A stretch of 64,000 bases of DNA from Candidatus Eiseniibacteriota bacterium (GCA_963823555.1 CAWGMA010000001.1:2144001-2208000), one strand, 5' to 3'. Counted from the first letter of the stretch, positions 1,146 to 49,805 are shown. A program made the numbers and translations. The notes: generated from the sequence alone by a model not told the origin.

Positions 1146-1916
1146 ATGGGTGAAGCGATTCAGGATCGGGCGTCCGAGCGCCTGATCGTCGCACTGGACC
1201 TCAACGAGTATGAACAGGCCGAGCGCCTGATCGATGACCTGCTGCCGGTGGTGGGGGGGTTCGCCATCGGCTACATGGCCATGGCCGAAGGATGGGACCG
1301 GAAGGCCGTCGACCACATCCTCGATACCGGTGAGAAGCGGGTCATCTTCTACGATCCTCATCTCAACGCCACACCCCGCATCACCGCCGCTGCGGTGGCT
1401 GCCTATGCCCGCTGGGGCATCACCCACCTGAGCGTCTGCGGCACCGCTGGCCAGCGGTCGATCCAGTCGGCCGTCGAGAATCGCGGGCCGGTCGACATCG
1501 TCGTGACCACGGTCTTGACCTCCTTCGACGAGAACGAGATCCGCTGTGAATACGGGCGCCGCAGTGATGAGGTGGTGAGCGAGCACGCGCGCGCGGCCCA
1601 GCTGGCCGGGGCGCAGGCCCTTCTCTGCTCGCCCCAGGAGCTCAAGATCATTCGCGCCTACGTCCACGTCGAGCGCCTGATCAAGATCGTCAACGGCATT
1701 CGCTTCCCAGAGAGCCCACTCAAGCAGGACGATTTCCAGCGGATCCTGTCTCCCGGCGACGCCATCCGCGCCGGCGCCGACTATCTCCTGGTCGGCCGGC
1801 CCATCCTCGAACCTCCCGCGGGCGTCCGCTCGCCGCGCGAGGCCGTGGATCGAATCATCAACGAGATCGTCGATGCGCTGCCCTCGGCGCCGGCCCATAC
1901 GCGAGCTGGAGCCTGA
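1146..1916 (+). CDS. Orotidine-5'-phosphate decarboxylase homologue with substituted catalytic residues
   Basis: LIVALD, TVLTS, GIR, DDFQR and GADYLLVGRPI motifs of PyrF. DxKxxD reads DPHLNA and the first catalytic Lys is Ala. GGAGG RBS upstream of ATG 1146. Confidence 0.85.
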   Translation: MGEAIQDRASERLIVALDLNEYEQAERLIDDLLPVVGGFAIGYMAMAEGWDRKAVDHILDTGEKRVIFYDPHLNATPRITAAAVAAYARWGITHLSVCGTAGQRSIQSAVENRGPVDIVVTTVLTSFDENEIRCEYGRRSDEVVSEHARAAQLAGAQALLCSPQELKIIRAYVHVERLIKIVNGIRFPESPLKQDDFQRILSPGDAIRAGADYLLVGRPILEPPAGVRSPREAVDRIINEIVDALPSAPAHTRAGA

Positions 1917-1948
1917 TCGCAGCCGATCGCCACGATCACGCCAGCAAC

Positions 1949-4290
1949 ATGCCAGAAGCCAGACACGAGGATGCCACCCGGCATCATCTACAGGAAGCCC
2001 TCAGGCGCTACCCGCAGCTCGCCGACCGCATCCACCGCGCGCTCCTGATCGCCCTGCATCAGCAGGGGATCTGTACGATCGACGAGATCTACGACCGGGC
2101 CCGGCGGCGAGCGCGACGCGAGGAAGAGCCGGAACCGACAGCGAACGACAGTAGCGACAACATCGCCACCGAACGGCGCTGGGACCGACTCGAACGCCGC
2201 TTCGTCGGCGAGGTCATCCGCGAGCTCACGGTCGAGCACCTATCTCCAGATGAAGTAGACGACCTCATCAACCTCACTCTCAAACGCGAGCAGGTTCGCA
2301 CACTGGAGGAGATCGCGAATCTCTCCACGGTCTCGTTCGGCCTGATCGCCGAGAAGGTCCGCGCCTTCGGGCGGCTGCCGGAGGGACAGACCCGCCTTCC
2401 GGAGTCGGAGGCGCTGGCGGTGCGGGTGGCCCTGATCCGCCACTTCATCTCGGATCAGCTCGAGTTCATCGGCGTGGCCCGCCATCCTCACCATCCGTGA
2501 TTTCGAGGACCTGGTCGATCGCATCGTCGGCGACCGACTGCGGCATCGGGCCGCATCGGCGGCAAGGCCGCGGGCCTGTTCCTGGCCGAGCGGATCCTGC
2601 GATCGGGCGCAGCGCGAGGACGCGGATGCCCCCAAGGTCGAGGTCCGCATTCCCGAGTCGTTCTTCCTGCGCTCGGATGTCATCGAGACAGTTCCTGGAG
2701 CACGACGGCCTCTACGAGCTCCAGCGCCACAAGTACAAGAGCATCGACGAGATCCACAACGAGTACCCGATGATCCTCGAGGTCTTCAAGAACGCGGAGT
2801 TTCCTCCCGAGATCGTGGTCGACCACCTGCGCGCCCTGCTCGAGCAGATCGGGCCGCATCCTCTCATCGTCCGCTCGTCGAGCCTGCTCGAGGATCGCTT
2901 CGGCGCCGCCTTCGCCGGCAAGTACCGCAGCGTCTTCCTGACCAACCAGGGGCCACTCGAGCAGCGGCTGAGCGACCTGCTCGGCGCCATCGCCGAGGTC
3001 TACGCCAGCACCTTGCACGCCGACCCCATCAGCTACCGGCGACGCACAATCTTCTCGACTACGACGAGAACATGGCGATCCTGATCCAGAAGGTCGTCGG
3101 TCAGCGCTACGGACGGTGGTTCTTCCCCGCCTGGGCCGGGGTCGCCTTCTCGCGGAACGAGTACCGGCGCAACTCCCGGATCCGGCCCGAAGACGGCATC
3201 ACGCGCATCGTCTTCGGACTCGGCACCCGGGCCGTGGACCGCGTCTCGAGCGACTGGTCCCGCGCATGATTCCACTGGGCATGCCGACGCTACGCCCGGA
3301 GGTCAAGGACCAGGACATCGTGCGCGCTACTCCCAGCACGAGGTGGACGTGATCAACCTGGAGAGGAACGCGTTCGAGACCGTTCAGCTCGACGAGCTGC
3401 TTGACCGATGATCGGCTCCCCGGCTTGGATCATGCGGTCTCGATCTATCGCAATGGGCACCTGACACGCCCGGTGGGGACTTTCATCGATGCTTCCCGTC
3501 CGAGCTGGTCATCACCTTCGATCGCCTGGTGCGCGAGACCCCCTATCCCGGCTTCCTGCGCTGGGTGCTCTCGACGCTCGAGAAGGCCTACGGGCAACCG
3601 GTGGACATCGAATACGCCTTCGATGGCGAGCGATTCCACTTGCTGCAGTGCCGGCCACAGGTCCTGCGCGGGCTGGACGTGCAGGTGGAGATTCCTTCGG
3701 GCATCGACCCTGCGCAGGTGATCTTCAGCGCCACTCGCGATGTCATCTCGGGTCTGGTCGGTGACATCGAATATGTCGTGGTGGTCGATGCTCACGACTA
3801 TGAGAACATCGACACCAACGAGAGACGACTGCGCGTGGCGGCGGCAATCTCAGCCCTCAACAAGCGCCTCGAAGGCCGCCCCTTCATCCTCATGGGGCCC
3901 GGGCGCTGGGGGAGCAAGGACCCGCTCCTCGGGATCCGCGCCGGATACGCGGACATCAACAACACCCGCATGCTCATCGAGGTGGCGCGCCCCCTGGGCG
4001 GCACCATGCCCGAAGCCTCATTCGGGAGCCACTTCTTCCAGGACCTCATCGAATCCGACATCCAGTACCTCGCCCTCTACCCCGAGGATGAAGGCACCGT
4101 CTACAATGAGGCGTTCTTGCTCGAGTCCGCCAACGATCTTCCCCGGCTGCTGCCGGAGATGGCATCCATGGCGGATGTGGTTCGAGTCATCCATGTCCCC
4201 GCCCTCACCGGGGGGCTCTTCCTGCAGGTGGCGATGGACGGCGACACGAACCGGGCGCTCGGGTACCTGGGACCGAAGCGCGCCCCCTGA
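1949..4290 (+). CDS. PEP/pyruvate-binding (PPDK_N, ATP-grasp) domain protein, split by several frameshifts
   Basis: Motifs across successive frames: IGGKAAGL (about 2555), LIVRSSSLLED..FAGKY, MAILIQKVVG, FGLGTRAVDR, DIEYA..LLQCRP, GPGRWGS and SFGSHFFQ. Pieces are ORFs 1949..2500, 2497..3084, 3072..3269 and 3529..4290. Confidence 0.8.
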
Positions 4291-4295
4291 ACCGC

Positions 4296-5897
4296 TCAGG
4301 CCAGGGTCTCCATGTACCGCGCCACTTCCCGGCTCACCTCCGGCCGTACATCCGGATTCCGCCGCGCCATGCGACGCAGATCGACCTTGGAGACGAACCG
4401 GACGTGGATGAAGGGACGCAGGCTGGAAATCGGGATGTGGGCCGGATTCGCGAGCAGGAGTCGTGGCACGTCGCGGTTGGCCGCCCCCGTGTGCAAGCTC
4501 GGCACCCGGATGATCTTCTCGAGAACGCGCACACTCCTGCTGTCACGCGCCACCAACGCGACCAGGCCGGCCATGGAAATCGCCTTGGGGTTGTCAAGCA
4601 GCCCCAGAATGAACGAGTCGTTGTCGATATGCCGATGGAGGAGATCGAGCAGGGTGAGTTCGCGGCCCGCCTTCGTTCCTGGCTGATCGGGTAGCGACGG
4701 CACGCCATCGGGCAACACGAGATTGAGTGCACGCCCTTCCTGGTAGCAGGTCTCGATTCGATCGGGGCCGGGTCGGCGGGCGCCCCACTCCGCAATCGTC
4801 GGCCAGATCGCCTCGGCGATCTCAGGCTCCAGGGACAGGGCGATCGACGTGTCTCCCTGCCGGTACTCGAGCACCTGCAACATGATCGACAGCAGATCCG
4901 CGGGCCGGCCATCCGTCACCGCCTTGGCGCGCAGGAGGTGGATCTGATAGAGCTGCGAGACGTGGAAGGCGAACTCGCGGCTGAGCACCGGGCGGAGACG
5001 CATGGCTTCGATGATTCGCCCCAGGCTCCGGGCCACGGTATCCCTGGACATGGCCTTCACCAGCTTGTCCAGTTCGGTGCTGGTGAGCGCCTGCTCGATG
5101 GTGAGTGACCGCTCGAAGAACGGTTCATAGGTGTTGATCCTCGACACCACATCCTTCATATGCTCGATGTCCTGATCAAGCCGGCTGAGCACTGGCAGCA
5201 GGCGCGCGATCCGGCGCGTGTCGTAAGGATCGATGGCGCCCGCGAGCAGGGACACGCGCTTCTCGAGCAGCTTCACCTCGAGCATGGCGAGCTGGGTGAT
5301 GAACTGCAGCGTGTCATCGGGGAGATCACGCCCTTCATCGAGCCGGAGCGCGATCTGGTCGAACCAGGCGTTCAGGTGCTGATGGACGGCGCCCAGCACC
5401 CGGCGATCTGCTGGCAGCTCGCCGATGGCGAGATCGAGAGCACCAAGGCGCGCCCCCTCCTCCAGCATGTCGAGAATGGGCCTGGCTGCGTTCACTTCCT
5501 GTGATTCTTCGGGCTCGTGCCAGGACCCGCTCGCGATCTTCAGGGTGACGCGCCTCAGACTGGACAGTCCGTTGAGCTGGCCGAGGACCTCCGCTCCCGG
5601 GCGCGTGACCTCCAGGAAGCCGAACCAGAGCCGGAGGCCTGACCGCTCTCGAGCGAGGGCCAGGGTGCCCGCCGCCTTCAAGAGCTCGATCGCCGCCCCC
5701 GCCTCGAGCTTGCGGAAGACCTCCGCAATCCGCCGGTTCCGCTCCCGGACCCGCTCGTCATCGGTCGCGGCCCGGATGCACTCAGCATGGGCAGGAGAGA
5801 CAGCGAGCTGCGACAGTTGCCCCGCCGCCTCGGTCAATGGAAGGGAGGCGGTGAGATCGACGGCCGCATACGGGGGATCGAGGGCTTGAGCGGGCAT
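4296..5897 (-). CDS. Hypothetical helical protein, 533 aa
   Basis: Long ORF with normal composition, convergent with the upstream gene. C-terminal LLANP..IP..SL..FI...DLRRMAR..DV..EV segment looks like a helical repeat. Confidence 0.75.
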   Translation of the reverse strand: MPAQALDPPYAAVDLTASLPLTEAAGQLSQLAVSPAHAECIRAATDDERVRERNRRIAEVFRKLEAGAAIELLKAAGTLALARERSGLRLWFGFLEVTRPGAEVLGQLNGLSSLRRVTLKIASGSWHEPEESQEVNAARPILDMLEEGARLGALDLAIGELPADRRVLGAVHQHLNAWFDQIALRLDEGRDLPDDTLQFITQLAMLEVKLLEKRVSLLAGAIDPYDTRRIARLLPVLSRLDQDIEHMKDVVSRINTYEPFFERSLTIEQALTSTELDKLVKAMSRDTVARSLGRIIEAMRLRPVLSREFAFHVSQLYQIHLLRAKAVTDGRPADLLSIMLQVLEYRQGDTSIALSLEPEIAEAIWPTIAEWGARRPGPDRIETCYQEGRALNLVLPDGVPSLPDQPGTKAGRELTLLDLLHRHIDNDSFILGLLDNPKAISMAGLVALVARDSRSVRVLEKIIRVPSLHTGAANRDVPRLLLANPAHIPISSLRPFIHVRFVSKVDLRRMARRNPDVRPEVSREVARYMETLA

Positions 5898-6016
5898 GCC
5901 TCACCGTGGGACAGAAGGTGGCAGCGGTCTGGGCCGGAAACGGGTTCGAGCTCAGTATCGGCAGCCCATCGCCCGTCCTCATGGTGCAAGACCGAATCCC
6001 ACTCGCGGTCCCATCC

Positions 6017-6031
6017 TGATACCATCGCGCC
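6017..6031 (+). promoter_or_regulatory. Putative extended -10 promoter for a leaderless transcript
   Basis: TG-a-TACCAT at 6017-6025, then 6 nt, then ATG 6032. No Shine-Dalgarno sequence. Confidence 0.4.
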
Positions 6032-6193
6032 ATGGAGCCCTTTCTCGGCATCCCGCTCTGGTTCCTGTTCGGCCTCCTGGGGGCCTGGATCGCCACCACC
6101 AAGGGCCGCTCGGGATGTGGGTGGTTTCTGGTCTGCGCGATTCTCGGCCCGATCGGTCTCCTCGTCGCCGCCGTGATCAAGAAGAGGGGCTGA
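6032..6193 (+). CDS. Small two-helix membrane protein, 53 aa (absent from the ORF track)
   Basis: Own translation MEPFLGIPLWFLFGLLGAWIATTKGRSGCGWFLVCAILGPIGLLVAAVIKKRG*. Two hydrophobic segments, a KGRS-x-x-x-WF...LGPIGL pattern seen in small membrane proteins, and GC3-rich codons. Confidence 0.7.
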   Translation: MEPFLGIPLWFLFGLLGAWIATTKGRSGCGWFLVCAILGPIGLLVAAVIKKRG

Positions 6194-6279
6194 GCCCGAG
6201 GCGCTCCCACCGGGCCATTGACAGCCTGTAGGCACTCGCCCGTGGTCCCGGAGCGCCGCACCTGTTCCCGAAAGAGCCC

Positions 6280-6462
6280 ATGAACCCGTCCCCTGCTCGG
6301 CCGCTTCAGCTCCTGCTGATCGGCGGCCTCTTCGCCCTCGTCTACATTCTGATCCAGCTCCCCCTCGGCTATGACGGTCTCGTCGGGGGATCACTCCGGC
6401 CGGCCGAGAGCCAACGGCACCCAGGCGGTACCCACGTCGGCTCTGCAAATCACCAGCGCTAG
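6280..6462 (+). CDS. Possible small membrane protein or gene remnant
   Basis: 60-aa ORF with one hydrophobic stretch (LLLIGGLFALVYILIQL). No recognisable family. Confidence 0.25.
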   Translation: MNPSPARPLQLLLIGGLFALVYILIQLPLGYDGLVGGSLRPAESQRHPGGTHVGSANHQR

Positions 6463-6779
6463 TGGGACGCAGCCGAGCATCATCTCCCTCCGGTCTCTGA
6501 AGAGAGGATAAGATGATGATGAAATGGGGCTTTGTGTTCCAGGCGAGGATCGCACTGGCAGCTGTCTCCGGCGGGGCCAGACTTCGTCGGAGGGAAGGGC
6601 CGGATCGATAACCAATATCGCCACCGTCCTTCCGCATGAAGCCGCTCTCGGTCCTGGGCTGCGAGCATACGGGCTACTTCGTCCCGTGGCAGGCGCCGGC
6701 AACACGGCGTTGACGTCTTCCTGCGGCCCTCCTACGATCTACTCGGAGGCCAAGACCCGGCTTGCCTTGGGGTGGCTCG

Positions 6780-9700
6780 ATGGATCACCAGGATCCGCGT
6801 CATGATCCACCGCCGGCAACACGGCGAAGGAAGGATGGCGAGGAAGCCGATGCGACAGCCTCGATCGGCGACCTGGTTCGCTCGATTGCCTCCCAGTTCG
6901 AGCTGGTCATGGGCCGACCGGAACGAGTGGCCGACTTCTGCTCCCGCCTCCAACAGCAGATCAGTCATCCGCCGACCGCCGCGGAAGCGGCACAGCTCGA
7001 AGAGCTGATCCCGCTCCTCTCCCTCAAGGGGGGAGACCTTGCAGCCCCGCTGTTCGATCTCCTGGCGCGAGTTGCCAGCGTCTGCGGTGCCCCATGGCCC
7101 TTCCTCGCCGGGATGCTCGCCGCCCGCGATCCCGAACTCGGGCGCCGCGCCCTGCACCTGACCGCGCAGCTCGCCGAGTCTGGAATGATCCCCATCGACG
7201 AGGAGAAGGCCCTCTTCCTCGCGCGGCAGGTCGAGAGCGAAGGCTCCCTCTTCCGTGAAAGCACTTCGTTGCGAACGATCGGGCAGCTCGTCAGCCGATT
7301 GCCGGCCGCGGGCGCCGCGCACCCGGTGCTCGACCTCTACCGCCGCGCGCCCCCCGACCCCCTCTCCCGCCTGGCGGCGCGCCTCCTCGATCTCGACAAC
7401 CAGCCGGCATCCAGCCGGCTCGCGAGGGAACTCCTGGGACGCGATGCCTATAGCTTCCTCCACCCCTATCTCGACTACACCCGGGCGTCCCATTTCGATC
7501 TCCTGCACCTCGTGCCCGAGCGTGGCCAGCCTCCACCCGCTCTCCCTTCGCTTCGCCGCACCGAAACCACCTGCGGCGCGGAGCTTCTGCGCGAGGTGAT
7601 CGCAGCCCTGGGCTGGCACCGCATCAATCTCGGCCTCGAGGTCACGCCGACCATCGGCGTCTCGATCGGCGATTCGATTCCCTTCCTGGTGTCGCCGGCC
7701 GAGGCGCAGCTCATCGCGTCCTGCACCGGCGCACGGCGCGTCTCCGAGTCCTTCATCTTCATCGCGCATGGCGGCCTGCCGGTGGATCAGCCGGGCGATC
7801 ACGAGCAGGGGAGCACGGTCGCCCGATTCCGGGCCTATAACCTGGCGCACGCCGAGGTCCTCGCCGACATCCTCGACGTGGCGGCACTCACCGGGGAGAA
7901 GACACGGCGGATACTCAGCCGGATGGACGAGATCGTCAGCGACTTCACCGCGCTGTTCGCCGCCATGAGTGAAGAATGCGAAATTCTTCCTGCCGTGTAC
8001 GCGGAACTCAGACAACGAGTCACCACCGAGCTGGAGAAGGAGGATGTCCATCCTCAGCTCTCGCCCGAGCTCACGAGACTCGTTCAGATGTTCGAGGATC
8101 CGGGATCGCTGGCGGACGTGAGGACGCTTCACGGCCTCAAACGCTACCTCCACCAGCGCGGGCTCAAGCTCGGCCTGCGACTGGTCGCCGCGGGCGCGGG
8201 GACCATGCGCACGGTGAGCCTTGTTGTCTCCAATCGCCGGCGAATCCTCCGCACTGTGGCCGCTATCCAGTATGTCGACTTCGAACCAACCACACCGCAG
8301 TTCAGCGCAGGACCGGAAACGGCATCGACCGTCGGACTGCCCTTCCCCGTCTCCGTGCTCGTGCATGCGTACGGCACCCAGCTCCTTCATGGCCAGGAGA
8401 GCTTCCCGAGCATCAAGATCTTCTGCTATGGCAACGAGGTCCACTACTACATCGCGTTCAAGAATCACCCGGCTTTCCTGCGCATCGATTTCTCGCCTCC
8501 GCTCAAGGGCGGCATGATCGATCTCGAGTACTTCGGTGTCAGCAACTACGAGCTGTCCGCCCACCCCAACCCGGCGCTGGACTCGATCCGGCTGTTCTTT
8601 GGCCGCCTCGATTTCGATGTCCAGATCGACGGTACGCGGATCCACGCCCGCTACGACAAGGAGCGGGCCCTCGACCTGGGAGAACTGTGTGACGCAGCCG
8701 GAGCCTTGTGCCGGCTCATTCCCTTTCTCATGGATGTGGACTGGATCATCGGCGGCCTGGATCTCGACCGCGACGCCCGCGCCAGGGTGGCCCGGGCCTG
8801 GGCCGACCGATTCGCGCTGTCGGGGACGTTGCCCATCGAGCAGCTCTTGACCCGGGACCGTAGGGGCATCCTCCAGGCCGTGGAGACGGGTCCGGCCGGG
8901 GAGCGCGAGGTGCCGTGGTCGGGAGAAGGGTCCTATCGCGATCGCCTCCATCTGCCGTCGGCCGATCTTCTCCTTCCCTTGCACTCGGCACTGGAAGAGC
9001 TCGGGCTGGACATCGTGTCGTTCCCGACACCAGGCGAGAGCCAGGGCGTGGGGGCGATGGCGCTCGAGCGCCTCCTGCTACGCCCCCTGCGGGAGGCGGT
9101 GGCCCGGGGCGAGCTGATGGTGACACCCGACGGATTCCGGAAGTGCCCACCCCAGAGGTTCCAGCGGAAACATGAGGCGGAAGCGCTGGCCGAGATCCTG
9201 GGCCGGGATGACACGACCATCAGAGAGGCCGCTCTGCTCGGCCAGCTGGTGGCGCCGCTCGAACGAACCCTCAGCTTCCAGACCACCGGCAGCGTGAACG
9301 GCTACGAGGTCCAGCGGGCGCGCTTGCCCTTGCTCGGAGAAAGCCTGGGGCTCCACGTGCTTCGCGACGCAGGTGGAATCGTCCGCCTGGCCGTCTTCAC
9401 CCACGGCGAGTCGATCTACAAGCGCCGGGATGACCCCAATGACACCTGGCGCTCGAACGAGAGCCTGAGCGTCCCCGAGCTCACATTGCTCCTCCGCCGA
9501 TCGAATTACCTGGCTCCCGGCGTGGAGTCGCCCGGGGAATGGGAGGCCGAGGAGGCGGAGAGGATCCGGGAGATGTTCGGGCGCACGAGCCCGTTCGAAC
9601 CGCGCGCACCGCTCAGGGGCGAGAGCGTGCTCAGGGGGCTCAGGGCATCGCCGGGCCGGGCTGTGGGCAGGGTCCTCTTCAGCACGGTCGGACGCCTGCC

Positions 9701-11920
9701 CGCCGACTTCGACGGCGCGGTCTTGGTGGCCGCCTCGGTGCGGCCGGAGGACAGCATCGTCCTCCACCATGCCGCGGGCATCGTCAGTACCGGGGGCGGG
9801 ATTCTCAGCCATGCCGGGCTCATCGCCGTGCAGCTGCACAAGCCAGCCCTCATCATCTCCGGACAGTGGCGAGACGAAGCGGACGGCACCCGCAGCCTCC
9901 TTCACGGCACCTTCGAGTACACGGAGGAAGCACGCGAGATGGGAGGCCACCGCGTCGTTCTCTGGCACGGCATGAAGGAGCGCGAGCACCGGCTGCACGA
10001 AGGAGCCCTGGTGGTGGTGGATGCCGATGCGGGAACGCTGCGTGTCATCGGCCATGACCGGGAAGCGCTGGCCTTGCACGAAGAGCTACGGCTCTTCGCC
10101 GCAGCCAGCCGACATCTGCTGCATGCCACCGACGAGAACGAGATCCTGCGCTTGCGCGGCAGGCAGCTCCAGGCGCGCTACCAGATCGCGAAACTCCTCG
10201 GTCGCCTCAACGATCCGATTGTCGCCCGCCATGCCGTCCACGAGATCCTGCTGGGCGAGGCCTTCGAGCCGGCCGGGGCTCGCGCCCACCGCGCTCAGCT
10301 CTTGTCCCTTGTCCTCGGCAACCCGCGTGTCGGCCCCGCGGCCCGCGACGGTTTGCTCCAGATCGCAAGGGAACTCGACCGCCGCCGTGCGGCGGCGCAC
10401 GAAGCGGCGGAGCGCTGCATCCCGGCCGCCGAATCCGTGTTCGAGATCCTGTGGCTGCGCCTGGCGGTCCGCCGCCTTCACCGCATTCTCGAGGGCACCA
10501 CCACGGCCCTGCTCGAGTGCGGGCTCGATGCTCCCCCACCAGACTCCTTCCTTCCATCCGCCATCGATCAGATGGCGGCTCGCCGGCTTGCCGATCTCAG
10601 GCTCGAGCGGCTTCATGCGCTGAGCGATGCGGCCGTCGGATCCCGGCAGCGGGTCCGGCGACGTCATCTGCTGCGTGAGATCGGACGCCTCGACCTCCTC
10701 CTGGGCAGGCAAGGGCAGCAGGACCGCGCGGCCTCTGCGGATGAGCTCTCTCGATCCGATGCCCAGGCGTGCGCAAGACTCGCCAAGCAGCACATCCTCG
10801 GCCCGGAGGAGGGAGGACTGGAGCTCCATCCCCTTCTCGGCTGGAAGGCGGCCAACCTCGCCGAGATCGGGGAGCTGGGCGGCCTCGCCCACGTCCCGCC
10901 CTGGTTTGCCATCACCCGTCGCGCGTTCAACGAGGTCCTCGCCAGGCCACTCGACCAGACGGCCCCGGCGAGTCCCGAGATCCTCCGGACCAGCCCCACG
11001 CTGGGTGTCGCCATCGATGCGATCCTGGATCGAGCCGACCTCAGCCCGGGGCAGCAGTCGGCGCAGATTCGTGAGCTCTGGGATCGGGTCGCGCTCCCCA
11101 GGGAGTTGATTGCCGAACTCCTGGCCGCCTATCGCCGGCTGGGGGAACTCCTGGCGCGGAGCGAAGACGCGCCACCTGATCCGGTCGGACCCTATGTCGC
11201 CATCCGCTCCTCCAGCCTTGAGGAGGACACCGAGAGCGCCGCCCGTGCCGGTGAGTTCGACACCTTCCTGTTCGTCCGCGGGGAAGATCGGCTCCTCGAC
11301 CCACCTCAGACGGGCATGGAGCGGGCTGTGGACGGAACGGGCGATCCACAACCGCGCGACGCTCGGCACGGGCTCGGGCCGGATCGGCGGCGGGGTCATC
11401 GTCCAGCGCATCGTCCGCTCGCGCGTTTCTGGAGTGCTCGCAGACAGTGAACGTCGCCGAGGGCAATATGCGGGAGATGGTGATCAACGCCGGGCTCGGG
11501 CTCGGCGAGGGGATCGTCTCCGGCGTCGTGGCGGCCGATCAGGTCGTGGTCGCCAAGGGCGGGGACCCGCGACATGAGTCGCTGCGCTTCCGTTACTTGA
11601 CGAGCGACAAGCAGAGCCAGGTCGTCTTCAACGAACGCGCGGGATCGGCACGGTGCGCGCCGAGACCCTCTATCACCAGCGACTTCGCCCCGCACTCGAG
11701 TACGTCGAGCTGTGCGAACTCGTGGCGCATCGCCACCGATCTCGAGGCGGCGTACGGCTACCCGCTCGACATCGAGTTCGGGATCGAGGGCACCCGCCTC
11801 TGGATCCTGCAGGTCCGCCCGATGGCCGTCTATGTCCCGGCGCTCCGCGAGACGCTCGATGATGATCCGATTTCGGCGGCGCCGCCGACCCGCTCTCCCC
11901 ATGAGGAGTCACAGTCATGA
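6780..11920 (+). CDS. Very large (about 1700 aa) dikinase-family protein: long N-terminal region, phospho-His swivel domain, C-terminal PPDK_N nucleotide-binding domain. Frameshifts near the 3' end.
   Basis: ASPGRAVGRV and STGGGILSHAGLIA (His codon 9810-9812), then GWKAANL, IRSSSLEED..AGEFDT, GLGEGIVSG and DIEFG..LWILQVRP across ORFs 6762..11450, 11110..11577 and 11447..11920. Confidence 0.85.
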
Positions 11921-14185
11921 TCCGACGTGAGGATGCTCTCGACTACCACGCGCCGACCGACCCGGCAAGATCGAGCTCCGCGCGACCAAGCCCTGCCTCA
12001 CGCCGCGCGAGATGCGCCTGGCCTACCTGCCGGGAGCGGCCTTCCCGGGCGAGGAGATCGCGAGGACCGCGCCGCCGTCCTTCCGCTACACGTCGCGGGG
12101 CAACCTGGTCGGCGTCATCACCAACGGCACGGCGGTGCCCGGCCTCGGCAACGTCGGGCCGGACGCGGCCAAGCCGATGCAGGAGGGGATCGCCGTCCTC
12201 TTCAAGCGGCTCGCCGACATCGACGTCTTCGACCTCGAGCTGGACACGACCGACCCCGATCGTCTCGATCGAGACCGTCCGCCTGCTCGAGCCGACCTTC
12301 GGCGGGATCAACCTCAAGGACATCCGCGCGCCCGAGGGGCTCTGAACATCTACGACCGGCTGCGCGAGTGCCTCGACATCCCGGTCTTCCACGAGAACCT
12401 CTACAGCACGGCCGTGGTGGCCGCCGCCGCGCTCCTCAACGCGCTCGATCTGGTGGACAAGCGGATCGATGAGGTTCGCGTCGTCATCTGCGGCGCCGGC
12501 ACCGTCGGCATCGGCTGCGCCCGCCTGCTCCTCGGCCTCGGGGTCACGCCGGACAACCTCCTCATCTACGACGTCCACGGCCTGATCCACCCCGACCGCG
12601 ACGACCTGCACGATTACCAGCGCGCGCTTCGCCCGGGAGGAGTCCGGCGCGCCAGCTGGCCGAGGGCCTGCGGGGAGCGGACGTCTTCCTCGGCGCCTCG
12701 GCCGGCGGGGTCTTCACCCAGGAGATGATCCGCTCGATGAGCCGCTTTCCCGTCGTGTTCGCCCTGGCCACGCCCGAGCCGGAGATCGGCTACGAGGCCG
12801 CGCGCGCCAGCCGGCGGGACGTGATCGTCGCCACCAGCCTCGATCGAGCACCCCAACGCCGTCGTCGATCTGCTGAGCTTCCCCTACATCTTCCGCGGCG
12901 CCCTCGACGTCCAGGCCACGCGAATCACCGAGGGCATGATGATCGCCGCGGCGCGCGCTCTGGCCGATCTGGCCCGCGAGGACGTGGTCGAGGAGGTGGA
13001 GCGGGCCTACGGCTACGAGCAGCTTCAGCTTCGGGCCCGAGTACCTGCTGCCCAAGCCGATCGACCCGCGCATCCTGGTGCGGGAGTCGGCGGCCGTCGC
13101 CGCAGCAGGCGATCGAGGAAGGCGTGGCCCGGCGTCCGCTGGACCGGAGACCTACGAGGAGAGCCTGACGGTCCGCCTCGGCACCGGCCGGGAGACGATG
13201 CGCGGGATGATCCTGACGGCGCGCCAGGAGAAGCCCCGCGTCGTCTTCTCCGAGGGCAGCGAGCGAGACGATCCTCCGCGCCTGCGCGCATCCTGGTCGA
13301 CGAGGGGATCGCGAGCCCGATGCTGCTGGGGCGCGAGGAGGAGATCCGGGCCGTGATCGACCGGCTGCGGCTCGACCTGAGCGGGTTCCGATCGTCGATC
13401 CGGCGCGGAGCCCGCGCCTCGAGACCTACGTCGAGGAGTACTTCCGCCTGCGCCGCCGCCGGGGCGTGATGCGGCAGCCGCGGCGCCGCAGCGGCTGCTC
13501 CAGCCCGACTACTTCGCCGCGATGATGCTCCACACCGGCGACGCCGACATGATGATCGCCGGCGCCTCGACGCACTACGTCGAGACGCTGCGGACCATCC
13601 TCGAGGTCATCGGCCCGGCCCCGGGCATCGGGCGTATCTCGAGCCACTACCTGGTGCTGCTGCCCCAGGGACGTGATCATCCTGGCCGACTGCGCCGTGA
13701 ACATCGAACCCGAGCGCCGAAGAGCTGGCCGAGATCGCGCTGCTGGCCGCGCGCACCGCGCGCTCGCTGGGCATCGAGCCCCGGGTGGCCATGCTCTCCT
13801 TCTCCAACTTCGGCAGCGTCGACCACCCTTCGCCCGGGAAGGTGCGCCGCGCCACCGAGATCGCCAAGCAAGCGCGCCCCGGATCTGGTCAGTCGACGGC
13901 GAGATGCAGCTCGCCACCGCTCTCGACAGCGCGCTGCGCCGGAGTACTTCCCCTTCTCCGAGCTCGAGGAGGACGCCAACGTGCTGGTCTTCCCCGACCT
14001 GCAGTCGGGGAATCTCGCCCTCCACCTCCTGCAGCACGTGGGCGCCGGCCGTCCTGATCGGACCGGTGCTGATGGGCACTCGCCTGCCGGCTCACGTCCT
14101 CCAGTACGGAGCCACGGCGGAGGAGGTGGTGAACCTCACGACGATCGGGATCGTGGAGGCCTCGGCGCTCAGGCGCGCGGGATAG
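11917..14185 (+). CDS. MaeB-type malic enzyme homologue (malic domain plus PTA-like domain) with substituted catalytic residues, many frameshifts
   Basis: [62 protein letters not shown] and [13 protein letters not shown]. The ATG overlaps the upstream stop (ATGA). Confidence 0.85.
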
Positions 14186-15628: not shown

Positions 15629-21213
<5,585 letters not shown>

Positions 21214-21366: not shown

Positions 21367-23256
21367 CTAGCCGCCGCATCCTCCGCCACATGAACTCGAT
21401 CCGCCGGCGGGCAGATCGTCATCCCCGGTCGTGCCCTCGATGCGGGGCAGCGCGGCCGGGTGCTCGCGCCGGGCCGACGACGCGGCCGGTGCCGAATCCG
21501 AGATCACCGGGAAGACCTCGTCCGGCCTGCCATGCCCGTTCCCGTTCCCGTTGCCATTGCCGTGGCCGTCGTCCTGGCCCCGGCCACCATCGGAACGCGA
21601 AACCCGCCGCTTCGGGATCCCGACCACGTCGCCATGCTGGGCGCGGTAGTCCTCGATCTCGATGCGGTAGTCGTGCTCGATCTTCTCGCGGAACGTAGGA
21701 CCCGAGTTGTAGGCGCAGAAGGGGTAGACCTTGCCGTCGGGCGCGGAATAGTGGATCACGCAACGCTGGACGCGATCGATCTCGTAATTGTAGGAATCCT
21801 GGAAGTGCATCCCTGCGACCATCAGCGTCTTGAACGTGTACGTGCCGTCGCCTTCACCACGACCCCGCTCCTTGTCGAAGAAGCCCTCGAGAGTCTGCAG
21901 GAAGCGACGGAAGCTCAGGCCGACCGGCGCCCTCTCGGCGCGGAAATACTTGTGCGCCGAGTTGAAGGCCGCGATCTTGGAGAAGGTCTTGATCCGGGCC
22001 CGCTCGGTCTTCTTGGCCAGGTTGTTGAACTCGGTCAGCATCTTCTCGACGTCGATGAACTGAGTGATCGGTGTTGCCTTGCCGTTCTGACCGACGAACA
22101 GGTAGGTGCCCACGCTGCAGTGCGGGTGACAGGTCAGGTGGGTCGTCTTCTCGCCCCTGAGCGCGCTCACGAGCCGCGAGACCGGAGTGGTGCACGGTGT
22201 CGGGTACCAGTCATCGAGCGTGGTGAACCCGGTCTGCTCGCCGATGTCCATCGCCAGATCGGCGAGCGTGTAGCGCATCGCTTCGCGCTTCTTCTGCGCG
22301 ATGCGTCCGGTGAAGGCCACCGGCTGGTAGCTGATGCCCGAGATGACATCGATGTTCTCGATGGCGTAGCGGAGAATATCGCCCACCTGGTGGTCGTTCA
22401 CGCCGCGGCAGATGGTGGGCACGAGAACGATCTTGAGTCCGGCCTCGCGCACGCGCTGGACCGCCCGTTGCTTCATCTCCCAGACCGCCTCGCCGCGCGT
22501 CCGCCGGTAAACATCGTCGGACACACCATCGAACTGCAGGTAGAGAGTGTGAAGCCCGGCCGCCTTCGCGCGCTCGGCCAATCCGGGCACGTTGGCGAAG
22601 GTCTTGCCGTTGGTGGCGACCTGCACGTGGCTGAAGCCGACTTCCTTCGCCGCCGCCACGGCCTCCACGAACCAGGGATAGATGGTCGGCTCACCGCCCG
22701 AGAACTGGACGACGCGCGCCGCCACCGGGCGCATGTCGCGAAGCTGCTGGAGCATCTGCCGGATCTGATCGAGCGGCGGCTCGTAGATGTACCCCGCCTG
22801 GTTGGCGTTGGCGAAGCAAACCGGGCATGTCATGTCGCAGCGGTTGGTGAGATCGACGTTGGCGAGACCGGTGTGCGATGTGTGCATCTGACACACGCCG
22901 CAATCGTCCGGGCACGACACCGCGTCCGGAACGGCCGGATTGGCGATCCCCTCTCCCTCCTCGAAGGTCCAGTTCTCGAGCTTCAGGTAGAGCTCGACGT
23001 TCGAGAAGACGATCTCCTTCACGTCGCCGTGCTCGGGGCAGGTCTTTCCCATCCAGACCTTGCCGTCCTCGGCGAACAGCTGCCCGGGAACGGCTCGCTG
23101 GCACTCCGGGCACAGGCTCCTGGTCGGGCGCGGGAGACCCCGGGCCCGGGGCGGCAGCGCGAAGCCCGATGAAAGCCGATGCCAATCGGGACCCGGCTTG
23201 AGTCCCGGGGGCGCCGCCGGCTTGGGAATCGAGACAGGTTCGGTCGTCGCAGTCAT
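21367..23256 (-). CDS. Radical SAM protein of the MJ0619 / tetraether synthase (Tes, GDGT-MAS) family
   Basis: SLCPEC...KTCPEHG N-terminal metal site, CPDDCGVCQMH, LTNRCDMTCPVCFANA (CxxxCxxC), QFSGGEPT, YLQFDG, TCHPHC and MHFQD.YN...RVQRCVIHY..PDG..YPFCAYN. Confidence 0.88.
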   Translation of the reverse strand: MTATTEPVSIPKPAAPPGLKPGPDWHRLSSGFALPPRARGLPRPTRSLCPECQRAVPGQLFAEDGKVWMGKTCPEHGDVKEIVFSNVELYLKLENWTFEEGEGIANPAVPDAVSCPDDCGVCQMHTSHTGLANVDLTNRCDMTCPVCFANANQAGYIYEPPLDQIRQMLQQLRDMRPVAARVVQFSGGEPTIYPWFVEAVAAAKEVGFSHVQVATNGKTFANVPGLAERAKAAGLHTLYLQFDGVSDDVYRRTRGEAVWEMKQRAVQRVREAGLKIVLVPTICRGVNDHQVGDILRYAIENIDVISGISYQPVAFTGRIAQKKREAMRYTLADLAMDIGEQTGFTTLDDWYPTPCTTPVSRLVSALRGEKTTHLTCHPHCSVGTYLFVGQNGKATPITQFIDVEKMLTEFNNLAKKTERARIKTFSKIAAFNSAHKYFRAERAPVGLSFRRFLQTLEGFFDKERGRGEGDGTYTFKTLMVAGMHFQDSYNYEIDRVQRCVIHYSAPDGKVYPFCAYNSGPTFREKIEHDYRIEIEDYRAQHGDVVGIPKRRVSRSDGGRGQDDGHGNGNGNGNGHGRPDEVFPVISDSAPAASSARREHPAALPRIEGTTGDDDLPAGGSSSCGGGCGG

Positions 23257-26524: not shown

Positions 26525-27691
26525 ATGACCGAGCTCGCGGCGCTCGTCGCCCGCGCCGAGGAACTCTACCGGGACTACCGTCTCACGCCGGTGCGCGAGT
26601 GGAAGGCGCGCACCGGCGGGCTCGCCGTCGGCTTCATGCCGATCTACGTCCCGCGCGAGATCCTCACCGCCCAGGGCGTGCTGCCCGTCGGCCTCATGGG
26701 GGGCGGCGACGATCTCGAGATCATCCGTGGTGACGCCTTCTACCAGTCCTACATCTGCCACATCCCGCGCTCGACCATCGAGCTCGGCTTGAACTCGAGC
26801 TACGATTGCCTCGACGGCGTTCTGTTCCCTGCGATCTGCGATGTGATCCGCAACCTCTCCGGGATGTGGAAACTCCAGTTCGCGGACAAGCTCGTGCGCT
26901 ATCTCGACGTGCCGCAGAACTTCGACGGCGCGATCGGCGGTCGCTTCTACCGCCACGAGCTCGAGGAGCTGATCCGGGATCTCGCGGCACGCGGCGCCAG
27001 ACCATACGATCCCGCGGCGCTCGGGGCGGCGATCGGTCTCTACAATGAGAACCGTCGCCTCGTGGCCGAGCTCTATGCGCTCCGCCTGGAGGAGCCATGG
27101 CGCGTACCGACAGCCGAGCTCTACGTGATCCTGCGCGCGGCGCTCGTCCTGCCGGTCGAGGAGTCGACCGCGATGTTCGCCCGCTATCGCGATCTCGTCC
27201 GCGCCGACGCGGAGCGCAAGCCGATGGATCAGGCCCGCGTGGTCCTGACCGGTTCCTTCTGCGAGCAGCCTCCGCTCGGCCTCATCAAGACCCTGGAGCG
27301 CTCCGGCTGTTACATCGTCGACGACGACTTCGTCCAGGTCCACCGTTGGATCCGCGGCGACATCGCCACCGCGGGCGATCCGCTCGGGAACCTGGTCACC
27401 GCCTTCCTCGATCAATCGATCGCGAGCCCGGTGCGCTACATCGGTGCCGACGTCAAGGGGCGGGACCTGGTCGAGCGCGTCGCGGCGAGCGCAGCCGAAG
27501 GGGTGCTGTTCTGCGCCCCGAGCTTCTGCGATCCGGCGCTCCTCGACCAGCCGATGGTGACCCGTGCGCTCGACCGGGCCGGAACTCCCTGGACCGCGTT
27601 CAAGTACGCCGAGAACAACGGCCAGTTCCAGGTCATCCGGGAGCAGGCCGGAACGTTTGCCGACTCGATCAAGCTGTGGAGCAGCGCCTAG
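26525..27691 (+). CDS. bcrC: Benzoyl-CoA reductase subunit C
   Basis: RGDAFYQSYICHIPRSTIELGL, CDVIRNLSGMW, GSFCEQPP, PSFCDPALLDQP and EQAGTFADSIKLWS. Confidence 0.93.
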   Translation: MTELAALVARAEELYRDYRLTPVREWKARTGGLAVGFMPIYVPREILTAQGVLPVGLMGGGDDLEIIRGDAFYQSYICHIPRSTIELGLNSSYDCLDGVLFPAICDVIRNLSGMWKLQFADKLVRYLDVPQNFDGAIGGRFYRHELEELIRDLAARGARPYDPAALGAAIGLYNENRRLVAELYALRLEEPWRVPTAELYVILRAALVLPVEESTAMFARYRDLVRADAERKPMDQARVVLTGSFCEQPPLGLIKTLERSGCYIVDDDFVQVHRWIRGDIATAGDPLGNLVTAFLDQSIASPVRYIGADVKGRDLVERVAASAAEGVLFCAPSFCDPALLDQPMVTRALDRAGTPWTAFKYAENNGQFQVIREQAGTFADSIKLWSSA

Positions 27692-27723
27692 GTGCACCGC
27701 TCGACCCCGGGCAAGGAGAAGCC

Positions 27724-29046
27724 ATGACCAACGATGCCGCGCAGAAGGACTCGAGCCAGATCCGCCAGAAGGACATGATCGCGGATCACTACCGGCGCTT
27801 GGCCCGCGCCCCCGAGACCGGGGACAAGTGCGCGTACACCTTCGTGCCGGGAAACCTGACCGAGCTCCTGCGCGCCTTCGATCTCCTGCCCGTGCTGCCC
27901 GAGATCAACGCCCTGCAGTCGGGGATGCGGGGCAAGTCCCGTGACTTCATCTCGCTCGCCGAGAAGCTCGGCCACTCCGAGGATGTCTGTACCTACGTCA
28001 AGTGCGATCTCGGAATGATGAAATCGGGAAATGTCGGCCCGACGGGCGAGCCGCTGCCGAAGCCCGATCTCCTGCTCCTCTCCTATACCGGCTGCTTCAC
28101 CTTCATGAAGTGGTTCGAGATCCTGCGTGAGGAGTACGATTGTCCGGTGGTCATGCTGCACGTGCCCTACCAGGGAGACGGCGTCATCACCGACTCGATG
28201 CGCCGCTACGTCGTCGATCAGCTCGAAGGCGAGGTGATCCCGGCGCTGGAGCGGGTCTCCGGCCAGCGCTACGACGAGGACCGGCTGAAGGGGATGCTCG
28301 CGCTCTCGGCCCGGGCCGAGGATGATCTGGTCTGGGTGCTCGAAGCGGCCAAGCACCGGCCTTCCCCGATCGATGCCTACTTCGGCGGGGTCTACTACAT
28401 CGGCCCCATCTTCACCGCCTTCCGCGGCATGCCGGAGGCCGTCGACTACTATCGCCTGCTGCGCGCGGAGGTGGCCGAGCGTATCGCCGCCGGCAAGGGA
28501 CCGGTGACCCCGGACGGCGAGATGGATGAGGAGAGGTTCCGCATCGTCGTCGAGGGGCCGCCCAACTGGACGAGCTTTCGCCAGTTCTGGAAGATGTTCG
28601 CCGATGAGGGCGCCGTGGTCGTCGCCTCCACCTACACCAAGGTGGGCGGTGTCTATGACCTCGGCTTCCGCCACGATCCGACCCGGCCGCTCGAGACGCT
28701 GGCCGATTACTGCATGGGCTGCTACACCAATCTCAACCTGCCCTCGCGCACCGACATGCTGTGCCGTTATCTCACCGAGTATGACGCCGACGGGCTCCTC
28801 ATCAACTCGATCAAGAGCTGCAACTCCTTCAGCGCCGGTCAGCTCCTGATCCTGCGCGAGGTCGAGCGACGGACCGGACGGCCAGGCGGCTTCATCGAGA
28901 GCGACCTCGTCGATCCGCGCTACTTCTCCGCCTCCAACATCAAGAACCGGCTCGAATCGTACTTCCAGATGATCGAGCAGAAGCGCCAGGGCGCCGCGGC
29001 ACGGGCGGCGGCGGCCGGCGGCACACCCTCCGGAGCCTCATCGTGA
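27724..29046 (+). CDS. bcrB: Benzoyl-CoA reductase subunit B
   Basis: TFVPGNL.EL, PEINALQ, GHSEDVCTYVKCD, SYTGCFTFMKWFE, SIKSCNSFSAGQL and DLVDPRYFS. Confidence 0.93.
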   Translation: MTNDAAQKDSSQIRQKDMIADHYRRLARAPETGDKCAYTFVPGNLTELLRAFDLLPVLPEINALQSGMRGKSRDFISLAEKLGHSEDVCTYVKCDLGMMKSGNVGPTGEPLPKPDLLLLSYTGCFTFMKWFEILREEYDCPVVMLHVPYQGDGVITDSMRRYVVDQLEGEVIPALERVSGQRYDEDRLKGMLALSARAEDDLVWVLEAAKHRPSPIDAYFGGVYYIGPIFTAFRGMPEAVDYYRLLRAEVAERIAAGKGPVTPDGEMDEERFRIVVEGPPNWTSFRQFWKMFADEGAVVVASTYTKVGGVYDLGFRHDPTRPLETLADYCMGCYTNLNLPSRTDMLCRYLTEYDADGLLINSIKSCNSFSAGQLLILREVERRTGRPGGFIESDLVDPRYFSASNIKNRLESYFQMIEQKRQGAAARAAAAGGTPSGASS

Positions 29047-43228: not shown

Positions 43229-44914
43229 ATGGGTAGCATCGCCCACTTCCTCAGAGGCAAGGTCCTCTTGGTGACCGGAGCCACCGGCTTCCTGGCCGGG
43301 GGCCTCGTCGAGAAGATCCTGCGTGCCGCGCCGGGCGTCACCCGCATCTACCTTCTCATCCGCTCCAGCAAGCAAGGCACCGCCACCGAGCGGTTCGAGC
43401 GGGAGATCCTCAAGGCCAGTGTCTTTTCCCGTCTGCGCGAGGTCCATGGGGCCCACTTCGAGGAGTTCGCGCGCCAGAAGATGGTTCCCATCGCCGGGGA
43501 TCTGACTCACGACCGGATCGGACTCACAGACGACGACTACGCCCGCCTCACCCGTGAAGTCGACATCGTCATCAATAGCGCGGCGAGCGTCGTCTTCGAC
43601 GAGCAGCTCGATCAAGCACTCAACCTGAACACCCTGGGCCCAAGACGCCTCGTCGAGTTCGCCCGGAGCTGTCGCGACGCGATCTTGCTCCATGTCTCCA
43701 CGGCCTATGTCAACGGGCAGCGCATCGGACACGTCCCCGAACAGCTTCTGCCCGCCGATCGCTCGCTCGCGCAGATCATCGATCCCCGCTCCAAGGTCGA
43801 CTTCGACCTCGAGAGCGAGATCGAGTCGATCGCCGCCTTCGGCCGCAGGGCCTATGAAGATGCCATGCGTCCCGAGCTGGAGGCGGAATTCGAGCGGGTC
43901 GTGGAGCGCACGCATGCCGGACGGCCGCTCTCCGAGAGCAGACGCAAGCATCACATCGAAGCGCAACGCGGACGCTGGATCAAGAAGCGCCTTGTCGACG
44001 AGGGGATGCGACGAGCTCGCCGCCTCGGCTGGACGGACAGCTACACCTTCACCAAGGCGATGGGCGAGATGGTCGTGGCCAAGACTCGGGGGAACCTGCC
44101 CACCGCCATCGTCCGCCCCTCGATCATCGAGTCGAGCCTCGCCGAACCGGTGCCGGGCTGGCTCGACGGGCTCAAGGTGGCCGACCCGCTCATCATGCAT
44201 TACTCGAAGGGCCGTCTCCCGGACTTCCCGGCCGATCCCAACATCGTGCTCGATCTGATCCCGGTCGACATGGTGGCCAACGCGATCCTGGCTGCATTGC
44301 CCCGGATCCGCGAGAGCCGGGAGATCATGGTCTACCAGGTGGCCAGCGGCTCCGAGAACCCGTTGACGCTCGGTCAGATGTTCGATCTCATCTACGATCA
44401 CTTCCAGAAGCACCCGCAACAGAACCGCCAGGGCGAGGCGATCCGCGTGCAGCGCTGGACCTATCCCAGTCTCGAGCAGTTCCGGCGCTCATTCCGTCTC
44501 AAGTACGTGATGCCGGTGAGCGCGGCATCGTGGCTCATCACCCATTTCGCCGGGCTGCCCTGGACGCCCAGATTCAGGCAACGTGTCCTGCTCATGGCAG
44601 CCACTCTCGACCGGGTCCAGAGCTTGCTCCACATCTACAGCCCCTACATGCATCTCGATTTCCAGTTCGACACCAGCAACACGCGCCGGCTCTACGAGTC
44701 GCTCGATGCCGAGGACCAGGGGGCCTTCGACTTCGACGTGCGGGGTATCGACTGGCGTGAATACATCGAGGACATTCACCTGCCGACACTGATGCGCAAC
44801 TTCTCCAAGGAAGGAAACGGACAGCGGCCGGCCGGACCCCCGTCGACCAACGGCCCGCGGCAGTTGACCGGGCCATCGGCCGTGAGCAGCACCGGCGCCT
44901 CGCTGTCGACCTAG
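43229..44914 (+). CDS. Fatty acyl-CoA reductase (male-sterility type, alcohol-forming)
   Basis: VTGATGFL, NSAASV.FDE, HVSTAYVNG, GW.DSYTFTKAMGE (YxxxK), RPSIIES...P.PGW, DLIPVD.VAN and F.FD...IDW..Y. Confidence 0.9.
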   Translation: MGSIAHFLRGKVLLVTGATGFLAGGLVEKILRAAPGVTRIYLLIRSSKQGTATERFEREILKASVFSRLREVHGAHFEEFARQKMVPIAGDLTHDRIGLTDDDYARLTREVDIVINSAASVVFDEQLDQALNLNTLGPRRLVEFARSCRDAILLHVSTAYVNGQRIGHVPEQLLPADRSLAQIIDPRSKVDFDLESEIESIAAFGRRAYEDAMRPELEAEFERVVERTHAGRPLSESRRKHHIEAQRGRWIKKRLVDEGMRRARRLGWTDSYTFTKAMGEMVVAKTRGNLPTAIVRPSIIESSLAEPVPGWLDGLKVADPLIMHYSKGRLPDFPADPNIVLDLIPVDMVANAILAALPRIRESREIMVYQVASGSENPLTLGQMFDLIYDHFQKHPQQNRQGEAIRVQRWTYPSLEQFRRSFRLKYVMPVSAASWLITHFAGLPWTPRFRQRVLLMAATLDRVQSLLHIYSPYMHLDFQFDTSNTRRLYESLDAEDQGAFDFDVRGIDWREYIEDIHLPTLMRNFSKEGNGQRPAGPPSTNGPRQLTGPSAVSSTGASLST

Positions 44915-44952
44915 CGGCCCCGAAACCCGCCGCATGGCGGCAGGGCGGTTCC

Positions 44953-46954: not shown

Positions 46955-46958
46955 ACGG

Positions 46959-49738: not shown

Positions 49739-49805
49739 TACGGTGGCCGGTAAGGTCCTTCCCGCCCCCGCTCTCCGCGCTCCCCTTAAGCTCCGCGCGG
49801 CGTTG

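Follow-up and report, generated by a model that had tools for sequence, protein, structure and literature searches.

A conserved two-gene unit joining a giant swivel-histidine phosphotransferase gene to a malic enzyme homologue without catalytic residues

The window analysed here is a stretch of 64,000 nucleotides from the genome of a Candidatus Eiseniibacteriota bacterium (GCA_963823555.1, CAWGMA010000001.1:2144001-2208000; genome G000), in which a giant gene for a predicted swivel-histidine phosphotransferase (the giant) is followed directly by a homologue of the malic enzyme gene maeB, with a homologue of pyrF and a gene for a PPDK_N-domain protein further upstream (Table 1). The MaeB and PyrF homologues have lost catalytic residues and are referred to as variant MaeB and variant PyrF; because other parts of the genome carry a further pyrF and a further maeB, each with canonical motifs, both are extra copies. 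The assembly of the window contains many single-base insertions and deletions, and three of the four genes are read across several frames. Intact homologues exist for the frameshifted genes, and public contigs, which may represent the same or a near strain, are one base short at positions 11298, 12266, and 13667, at or near frame breaks. The TGA of the giant gene and the ATG of variant MaeB overlap as ATGA at 11917-11920, confirming the coupling of a giant dikinase to a MaeB homologue without catalytic residues that an earlier note on this sequence had described.

Table 1. Features at the giant and variant MaeB locus and upstream of it (window coordinates)
Feature	Position	Strand	Description
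Giant swivel-histidine phosphotransferase gene	6780..11920	+	About 1,700 aa; frame breaks towards the 3' end
Giant, central domain (presumed acceptor)	8070..8860	+	Approximate limits; invariant His at 8130 and 8151
Giant, PEP-utilizers His (swivel) domain	9711..10031	+	Phospho-His codon 9810; Leu codon 9804
Giant, C-terminal ATP-grasp (PPDK_N)	10830..11830	+	Lys 10845, Arg 11205, Thr 11262, Glu 11774, Gln 11810, Arg 11816
Variant MaeB	11917..14185	+	About 750 aa, frameshifted; malic-enzyme domain without catalytic and metal residues, then PTA-like domain
Variant PyrF	1146..1916	+	PF00215; orotidine monophosphate (OMP) decarboxylase fold with Lys-to-Ala, Lys-to-His, and Asp-to-Ala changes; small conserved clade; outside the two-gene module
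PPDK_N protein without His domain	1949..4290	+	About 780 aa, frameshifted; family adjoining glutamate dehydrogenase genes; outside the two-gene module
533-aa open reading frame, no known family	4296..5897	-	Between the two gene pairs, on the opposite strand

The giant gene and variant MaeB are found together far beyond this genome. Using the first 102 residues of variant MaeB as the query against species genomes, we examined the best 80 of 569 relatives; the catalytic lysine is missing in eight of these maeB loci, all eight of which have the giant gene upstream, while none of the other 72 has it (71 of these show the lysine motif, and for one no motif was printed). The reverse scan from the giant yielded 58 metagenome loci, 30 of which were left out because they stop within the gene or shortly beyond it. 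In all 28 informative loci a maeB gene comes next after the giant, and wherever the sequence reaches the position of the catalytic lysine (27 loci) that residue is missing. In the window's class, represented by 206 genomes, the giant is present in 17 and variant MaeB, at a strict cut-off, in 16, and the 12 of 121 near-complete class genomes that carry the giant are the identical 12 that carry variant MaeB. The pair is visible in 17 of the 18 class genomes with either gene, including one with a frameshifted variant MaeB behind the giant (G069) and one in which the giant's end lies at a contig edge, ahead of variant MaeB (G073); in the remaining one (G055) the contig stops within the giant and the flank is unreadable. 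The junction is a 4-nt (ATGA) overlap in 29 of 48 cases and a gap of no more than 50 nt in nine more, with two rows of this tally possibly being the same DNA. These numbers are not independent of kinship, and are counts rather than statistics. Carriers are labelled by the depositors of the metagenome-assembled genomes as Bacteroidota, Gemmatimonadetes, Acidobacteriota, Planctomycetaceae, Eisenbacteria, Anaeromyxobacter, Latescibacterota, and Desulfobacterales. The giant gene and variant MaeB together form a conserved, translationally coupled two-gene unit. At one locus (L044, 8559-9959) about 1.4 kb lies between the two genes, overlap being usual elsewhere.

The replacements in variant MaeB were followed in an alignment of 117 full-length homologues (of 120 listed, three shorter ones being dropped) and 55 canonical MaeB proteins, with numbering taken from Bdellovibrio bacteriovorus MaeB through alignment to PDB entry 6ZNG. 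The catalytic, metal, nicotinamide, and acetyl-CoA roles of its residues are as given in PMC7902834. In the window, K107 is replaced by isoleucine (12189), E149 by lysine (12316), and D174 and D175 by glutamate and asparagine (12393 and 12396). Across the 117 homologues the catalytic K107 is never lysine (methionine, valine, or isoleucine in 115), E149 of the metal site is lysine in 114 and never glutamate, the catalytic D174 is glutamate in 116 and aspartate in one, and D175 of the metal site is asparagine in 115 and never aspartate, while the catalytic K107 and D174 are kept in all 55 canonical controls. The nicotinamide contact N300 is lost in 116, with threonine in 110. Y52 and D150 are kept in all 117, D150 being the sole survivor among the metal-site acids E149, D150, and D175; we take D150 and D175 to be metal ligands. 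A sub-branch in which the Tyr52 equivalent is also lost is seen at two more distant loci (L160, 4866-7097; L162, 6463-7860).

Binding elements outside the catalytic centre are largely retained. The Rossmann (GAG) glycines, D233, and R242 are kept in 113-117 of the 117 proteins (G207, D233, and R242 in 116-117). The acetyl-CoA contacts R535 (108), R581 (107), N616 (115), Q683 (116), N718 (108), and Q748 (110) are also kept in most, together with Y576 and P735 of the PTA domain (105-117). K538 in the PTA domain is arginine in 113, and the acetyl pocket is altered, with Y721 replaced by leucine or methionine, K722 by histidine or glutamine, and T614 by alanine; the catalytic aspartate and serine or threonine of a true PTA are not restored. 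The kept CoA and nucleotide contacts would fit a sensor role for variant MaeB. The former active-site pocket has near-invariant polar residues of its own (Q89, K134, D135, E159, N160, and D316), and has been rebuilt with new near-invariant residues rather than having decayed, which fits a ligand site or a new reaction.

The closest described relative is the hybrid MaeB of Bdellovibrio (6ZNG), to which variant MaeB aligns over the full malic-enzyme plus PTA architecture (E 9e-200). The two share the hook region, the Rossmann motif, most acetyl-CoA contacts, and a PTA domain without the catalytic aspartate and serine or threonine (PMC7902834). Variant MaeB differs in the replacement of K107, E149, D174, D175, and N300 and in its changes at Y721 and K722, and also in being tied to a dikinase gene and usually being a second copy alongside a normal maeB.

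With many frameshifts in the window, it could be supposed that the substitutions are sequencing errors or pseudogene decay. This explanation is refuted and we give it practically no weight: the substitutions recur in 117 independent full-length variant MaeB and 14 variant PyrF homologues, bearing out the earlier claim that indel errors do not explain the active-site changes, and the ratio of nonsynonymous to synonymous substitution rates (dN/dS) is far below 1. For variant MaeB the dN/dS among 24 intact genes has a median of 0.21 and a maximum of 0.55 (213 unsaturated of 276 pairs), with values of 0.03 and 0.06 for two pairs more than 90% identical, and for variant PyrF it is 0.18 in the one available pair; the check that the earlier note had proposed thus came out well below 1 for both. 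The ratio of PTA-domain to malic-domain divergence is 1.37 in variant MaeB and 1.85-1.99 in canonical MaeB, and the PTA domain is thus relatively more constrained in variant MaeB.

Conservation of this kind could also reflect catalysis, with the giant and variant MaeB making up one enzyme in which variant MaeB has a new active site, for example for an NAD(P)-linked step or as a phospho-histidine acceptor site. The retention of Y52, D150, and the Rossmann motif speaks for this, as does the fact that many positions once invariant now have a new residue fixed in at least 85% of sequences. However, variant MaeB has lost its general base, two of its three metal ligands, and the nicotinamide contact N300; the missing PTA residues are not restored; and the giant's own highly conserved central domain would still need a role. 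We regard a single enzyme as distinctly unlikely.

The giant consists of a helical N-terminus and a central domain, together making up its first ~940 residues, followed by the His domain, a helical linker, and the ATP-grasp. Among 8000 scored clusters, 461 match giant residues 300-950, and most of the homologues among the 120 matches listed are 1,600-1,730 aa long with PF00391 and PF01326. The phospho-histidine is present in 82 of 83 representatives, with PF00391 above its cut-off, and the ATP-grasp lysine in 83, the glutamate in 82, and the glutamine and arginine in 82-83 of the 83; the arginine and threonine of the motif are found in at least 90% of 97 sequences, and all motif residues are present in the window. 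These positions match Lys22, Arg117, Thr136, and Glu297, which were studied in RPH (PMC4844700). The giant ATP-grasp is most similar to PpsA/RPH-like proteins (E 1.7e-40 to a PpsA chain) and its His domain to PPDK-type proteins; because the two match different families best, the giant is a mosaic. A divergent homologue of 1,464 aa (P0478) has ATP-grasp motifs that look eroded. The pyruvate-binding TIM barrel, stated in the earlier note to be missing from both dikinases, is indeed absent: domain searches found no PEP-utilizers_C in the giant or in the PPDK_N protein. Two residues before the phospho-histidine all 83 giants have a leucine, at what we take to be the site of the regulatory threonine in PpsA and PPDK. 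PpsA is controlled through a threonine near its histidine (PMC2817694), so the invariant leucine makes PSRP-type control of the giant unlikely.

The region ahead of the His domain has no recognisable counterpart in general databases. A profile of giant residues 180-940 gave no match in the PDB (best E 0.35; allophycocyanin, the candidate at that value, was rejected), the N-terminal 760 residues fall into no consistent Pfam family, and a search of the ESM Atlas with the N-terminal region returned no usable match (best 0.81, chance level). Against 1.84 billion representatives the giant profile gave 255 hits, and the 150 listed resemble family members or their fragments. Identification of the histidine-bearing helix of the central domain as an HPt phosphorelay domain was rejected, with none of 44 members matching Pfam Hpt at E 0.5, and no hit was obtained when the genome's three other PPDK_N proteins were considered as carriers of the central domain.

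A likely relative was found in a phosphoenolpyruvate (PEP)-synthase-like family, chosen for a likeness to deltaproteobacterial proteins noticed beforehand, with PPDK_N loci drawn from ten genomes. When 216 open frames were scanned with the giant profile, the four best non-self matches were members of this family, at both predicted motifs. An alignment of 13 family sequences matched the giant central domain with an HHalign E of 0.002, and as a profile at E of 10 or below it found 11 of 196 giants and 2 of 41,569 decoy frames. Comparison of 43- and 84-sequence alignments, with the family preselected and the core trimmed after the likeness had been seen, gave a probability of 51% and an E of 1.5e-4 over 186 columns; the HHalign score was 37.4, against 20.9 +/- 3.4 (maximum 30.7) for 60 block shuffles and 16.5 for the reversed sequence. 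Both conserved histidine positions of the central domain align with the C-terminal domain of the family. The central domain is therefore a probable, not a proven, remote homologue of that domain, as judged from these alignments.

Members of the PEP-synthase-like family are about 870 aa long, with an ATP-grasp, a His domain, and a C-terminal domain of ~290 aa for which there is no Pfam model and no PDB match, and no characterisation of the family was found in the open-access literature. In the phylum to which genome G206 belongs, 47 of 121 genomes encode them, with up to nine copies each (loci L269-L357). At 29 of these loci we counted as neighbours the two longest downstream same-strand frames; eight loci have a stand-alone receiver, two a histidine kinase, and two a DUF190-CBS protein. 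Members of the family often stand in tandem with stand-alone receivers.

The surroundings of the giant itself are metabolic where they recur. OadA/OadB-like (oxaloacetate-decarboxylase-like) genes flank five giant loci, malate dehydrogenase and canonical maeB flank the giant at L257, canonical maeB alone flanks another locus, and a DASS carrier gene is present at L046. A third conserved gene of the module was sought and dropped, none recurring in more than seven of 81 loci. Such neighbours would suit a metabolic water dikinase, forming PEP from pyruvate or acting on another central acid, in which the central domain replaces the TIM barrel and variant MaeB serves as an allosteric subunit instead of PSRP/PDRP. 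The leucine at the regulatory-threonine position points the same way, as does the gene content of the window's genome, which has PPDK and an enzyme I-like barrel protein without PPDK_N and no PpsA-type gene; other carriers have about two barrel loci each, assigned by match lengths only. On the other hand, PPDK is already present in the window's genome, the N-terminal 760 residues match no solved or Pfam acceptor domain, the metabolic neighbours are confined to a minority of loci, which are possibly related to one another, and the homologous PEP-synthase-like family is multicopy and lies among signalling genes. A water dikinase therefore seems to us unlikely, if still to be taken seriously.

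A second maeB, 48-54% identical and of canonical tier, is present in 13 of 16 other carriers, with its motifs confirmed in the window's genome, and in two carriers a canonical maeB lies within ~7 kb of the start of the giant gene. Variant MaeB might accordingly be the giant's phospho-acceptor, or might tune the canonical malic enzyme through mixed oligomers, and the many newly conserved serine, threonine, and histidine residues in variant MaeB are compatible with this. Yet the canonical maeB usually lies elsewhere in the genome, none was found in G148, a giant carrier that is 96% complete, and no specific acceptor residue stands out in variant MaeB, so that we consider these roles improbable.

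Several characterised systems share parts of this arrangement. GWD1 has the same order of central, His, and C-terminal ATP-binding domains and a similarly large size (PMC13553574), whereas the giant has no carbohydrate-binding modules, a central domain without sequence match in Pfam or the PDB, a bacterial distribution, and a dedicated partner gene. PpsA and PPDK share the ATP-grasp and His domain, but the giant differs from them in its reversed domain order, its missing barrel, and its leucine for the regulatory threonine, and it scores far below their equivalog cut-offs. RPH, PigC, and RedH have equivalent ATP-grasp residues and an acceptor domain other than the barrel (PMC4844700), but in the order ATP-grasp, acceptor, and His, and with an acceptor domain unrelated by hidden Markov model comparison. 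The giant scores 130-170 bits against RPH/PigC/RedH-type cut-offs of at least 999. VadK (Rv1127c) presumably has no counterpart of the 940-residue N-terminal region, going by its size. It resembles the giant in being a PPDK-derived histidine kinase turned regulator of central metabolism, and differs in that the available part of its description mentions no pseudoenzyme partner (bioRxiv 10.1101/2025.10.30.685616). The PEP-synthase-like family is alike in its C-terminal domain, which aligns with the central domain including both histidines, and unlike in its domain order, its smaller size, and its location among two-component genes.

We propose that variant MaeB is a metabolite-sensing subunit controlling a swivel-histidine phosphotransferase that probably passes its phosphate to a protein, a reading of the sequences to which we give roughly even chances. 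The ATP-grasp would place the beta-phosphate of ATP on the giant's histidine (9810), going by what is known of the family, and the phosphorylated His domain would then swing over to the central domain, a movement of the kind made in GWD, RPH, and PPDK. In hybrid malic enzymes acyl-CoA binds in the PTA ring and the malic domains rotate (PMC7902834; PMC12704298); in variant MaeB, acyl-CoA binding would turn the dead malic domains in the manner of Bdellovibrio MaeB and so switch the kinase. The change of E149 to lysine may place a positive charge in the vacated magnesium site, such that a C3 or C4 acid would be bound without turnover. The weakest step is the protein acceptor, for which the argument is a remote homology with a family whose genes lie among those for response regulators. 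A protein is favoured by the context of the PEP-synthase-like family and by the precedent of VadK, and a small molecule by the metabolic neighbours of the giant.

A number of points weigh against a metabolite sensor acting on a protein acceptor. The remodelled pocket of variant MaeB would fit a new catalytic site equally well, and since Y721 and K722 are changed the ligand may not be acetyl-CoA. No response regulator recurs beside the giant, the recurrent neighbours being metabolic. The homology of the central domain is marginal, the family having been picked beforehand for its likeness and the core trimmed afterwards, and with the 13-sequence profile no giant reaches E 0.01 (single-profile best E 0.06). 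The receiver or histidine kinase neighbours at 10 of 29 PEP-synthase-like loci are a raw count without a background, and the second maeB not found in G148 counts here as well. More tentatively still, and with less confidence than the sensing subunit itself, we suggest a possible new signalling class, in which a dead malic enzyme hexamer would read acyl-CoA, NAD(P), and C3/C4 acids and drive a beta-phosphate histidine relay outside the two-component kinases and the phosphotransferase system (PTS), through an acceptor domain common to a multicopy family encoded among response regulators in sulfate-reducer-type genomes.

The second gene pair of the window does not behave in this way. The earlier note had seen the same pattern twice within 13 kb, with a PyrF homologue without catalytic residues 32 nt before a PPDK_N gene. 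The residues and the spacing hold, with 32 nt between the variant PyrF stop and the PPDK_N-gene ATG (1949). In the window the first lysine is Ala40, and in the DxKxxD motif the lysine is His72 and the second aspartate Ala75, with Asp70 kept. Of the 120 best PyrF matches, 15 (the query included) have the His/Ala version of the motif, while both motif residues are kept in the remaining 105. Variant PyrF retains Asp18, Asp70, the Thr-Ser loop, and the Gly-Arg phosphate gripper, whose roles we presume; judged by these residues, it has likely either kept the binding of a nucleotide monophosphate or acquired a new activity. An RPE-like metal site was considered and dropped, the beta-2 His/Asp of that motif being absent.

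Variant PyrF is found in two of the 206 class genomes, the window's own and G001 (80% identical). The G001 copy is flanked on one side by a polyamine-aminopropyltransferase-like membrane gene and on the other by two M16-type peptidase genes. That genome is 85% complete, and no giant and no orthologue of the window PPDK_N gene was found in it. The three best orthologues of the PPDK_N gene (in G009, G015, and G008) adjoin glutamate dehydrogenase genes or lie between them, and three PPDK_N paralogues on contig C4 of the window's genome have the same surroundings. Because variant PyrF has other neighbours in G001 and the PPDK_N orthologues adjoin glutamate dehydrogenases, we reject the pair: variant PyrF and the PPDK_N gene are not a unit but unrelated neighbours, a coincidence in this genome. 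The earlier expectation that loss of catalytic residues goes with a neighbouring dikinase thus holds across loci for variant MaeB and the giant, a real system, and fails for variant PyrF. No His domain (PF00391) was found in the window PPDK_N fragments, the G009 orthologue, or the closest C4 paralogue, and a histidine-phosphorylation test is inapplicable to the PPDK_N protein because it has no such domain. PPDK_N proteins without a His domain occur in twos and threes around glutamate dehydrogenase genes (L036, 3503-15823, on C4 of G000; L252-L254), and some carry receiver-like or nucleotidyltransferase extensions.

The reading of all four genes as one system of two pseudoenzyme-dikinase pairs is already largely refuted, and we hold it to be very improbable. 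Their lying within 13 kb here, and the conservation of variant PyrF under purifying selection, are in its favour; against it stand the G001 and glutamate dehydrogenase contexts just described, the lack of any variant PyrF match in 66 giant loci, and the opposite-strand reading frame that separates the pairs. That 533-aa frame has no Pfam or NCBIfam match, and none was seen beside the giant gene at the other loci examined.

Elsewhere in the window, a frameshifted BadF/BcrA-type activase (15629-20200, minus strand), a radical SAM protein with an HMPTM zinc ribbon (21367-23256, minus strand), and an HGD-D dehydratase component (27097-29046, plus strand) form a 2-hydroxyacyl-CoA dehydratase-type cluster. 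Fatty acyl-CoA reductase-like (male sterility), zinc dehydrogenase, and lactate racemase N-domain genes lie in a single run at 43229-52640 (plus strand), and a tandem pair of BTAD-ATPase-TPR regulators (SARP/STAND-like) at 53704-57669 and 58142-61756 (plus strand).

No description of the giant and variant MaeB pair, of variant PyrF, or of the glutamate dehydrogenase-linked PPDK_N family was found in open-access PMC and bioRxiv texts, where genome-paper tables could mention them. The parts are of known kinds, a swivel-histidine phosphotransferase and a pseudoenzyme regulator, and it is their combination and the acceptor domain that are undescribed. Databases annotate variant MaeB as 'malate dehydrogenase (decarboxylating)' and the giant as 'pyruvate, water dikinase', so that metabolic reconstructions are likely to include activities that are not there. 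The variant PyrF clade, with 15 clusters and a near-invariant histidine for the catalytic lysine, may have a new activity built on the OMP decarboxylase barrel, and the link to the PEP-synthase-like family provides a second, culturable route to the acceptor domain of the giant. If the proposed role of variant MaeB is correct, a malic enzyme would have been retained for nothing but its allosteric machinery and coupled to a kinase, and a regulatory branch would be added to the swivel-histidine phosphotransferases at the pyruvate, malate, and acetyl-CoA node of anaerobic and uncultured bacteria.

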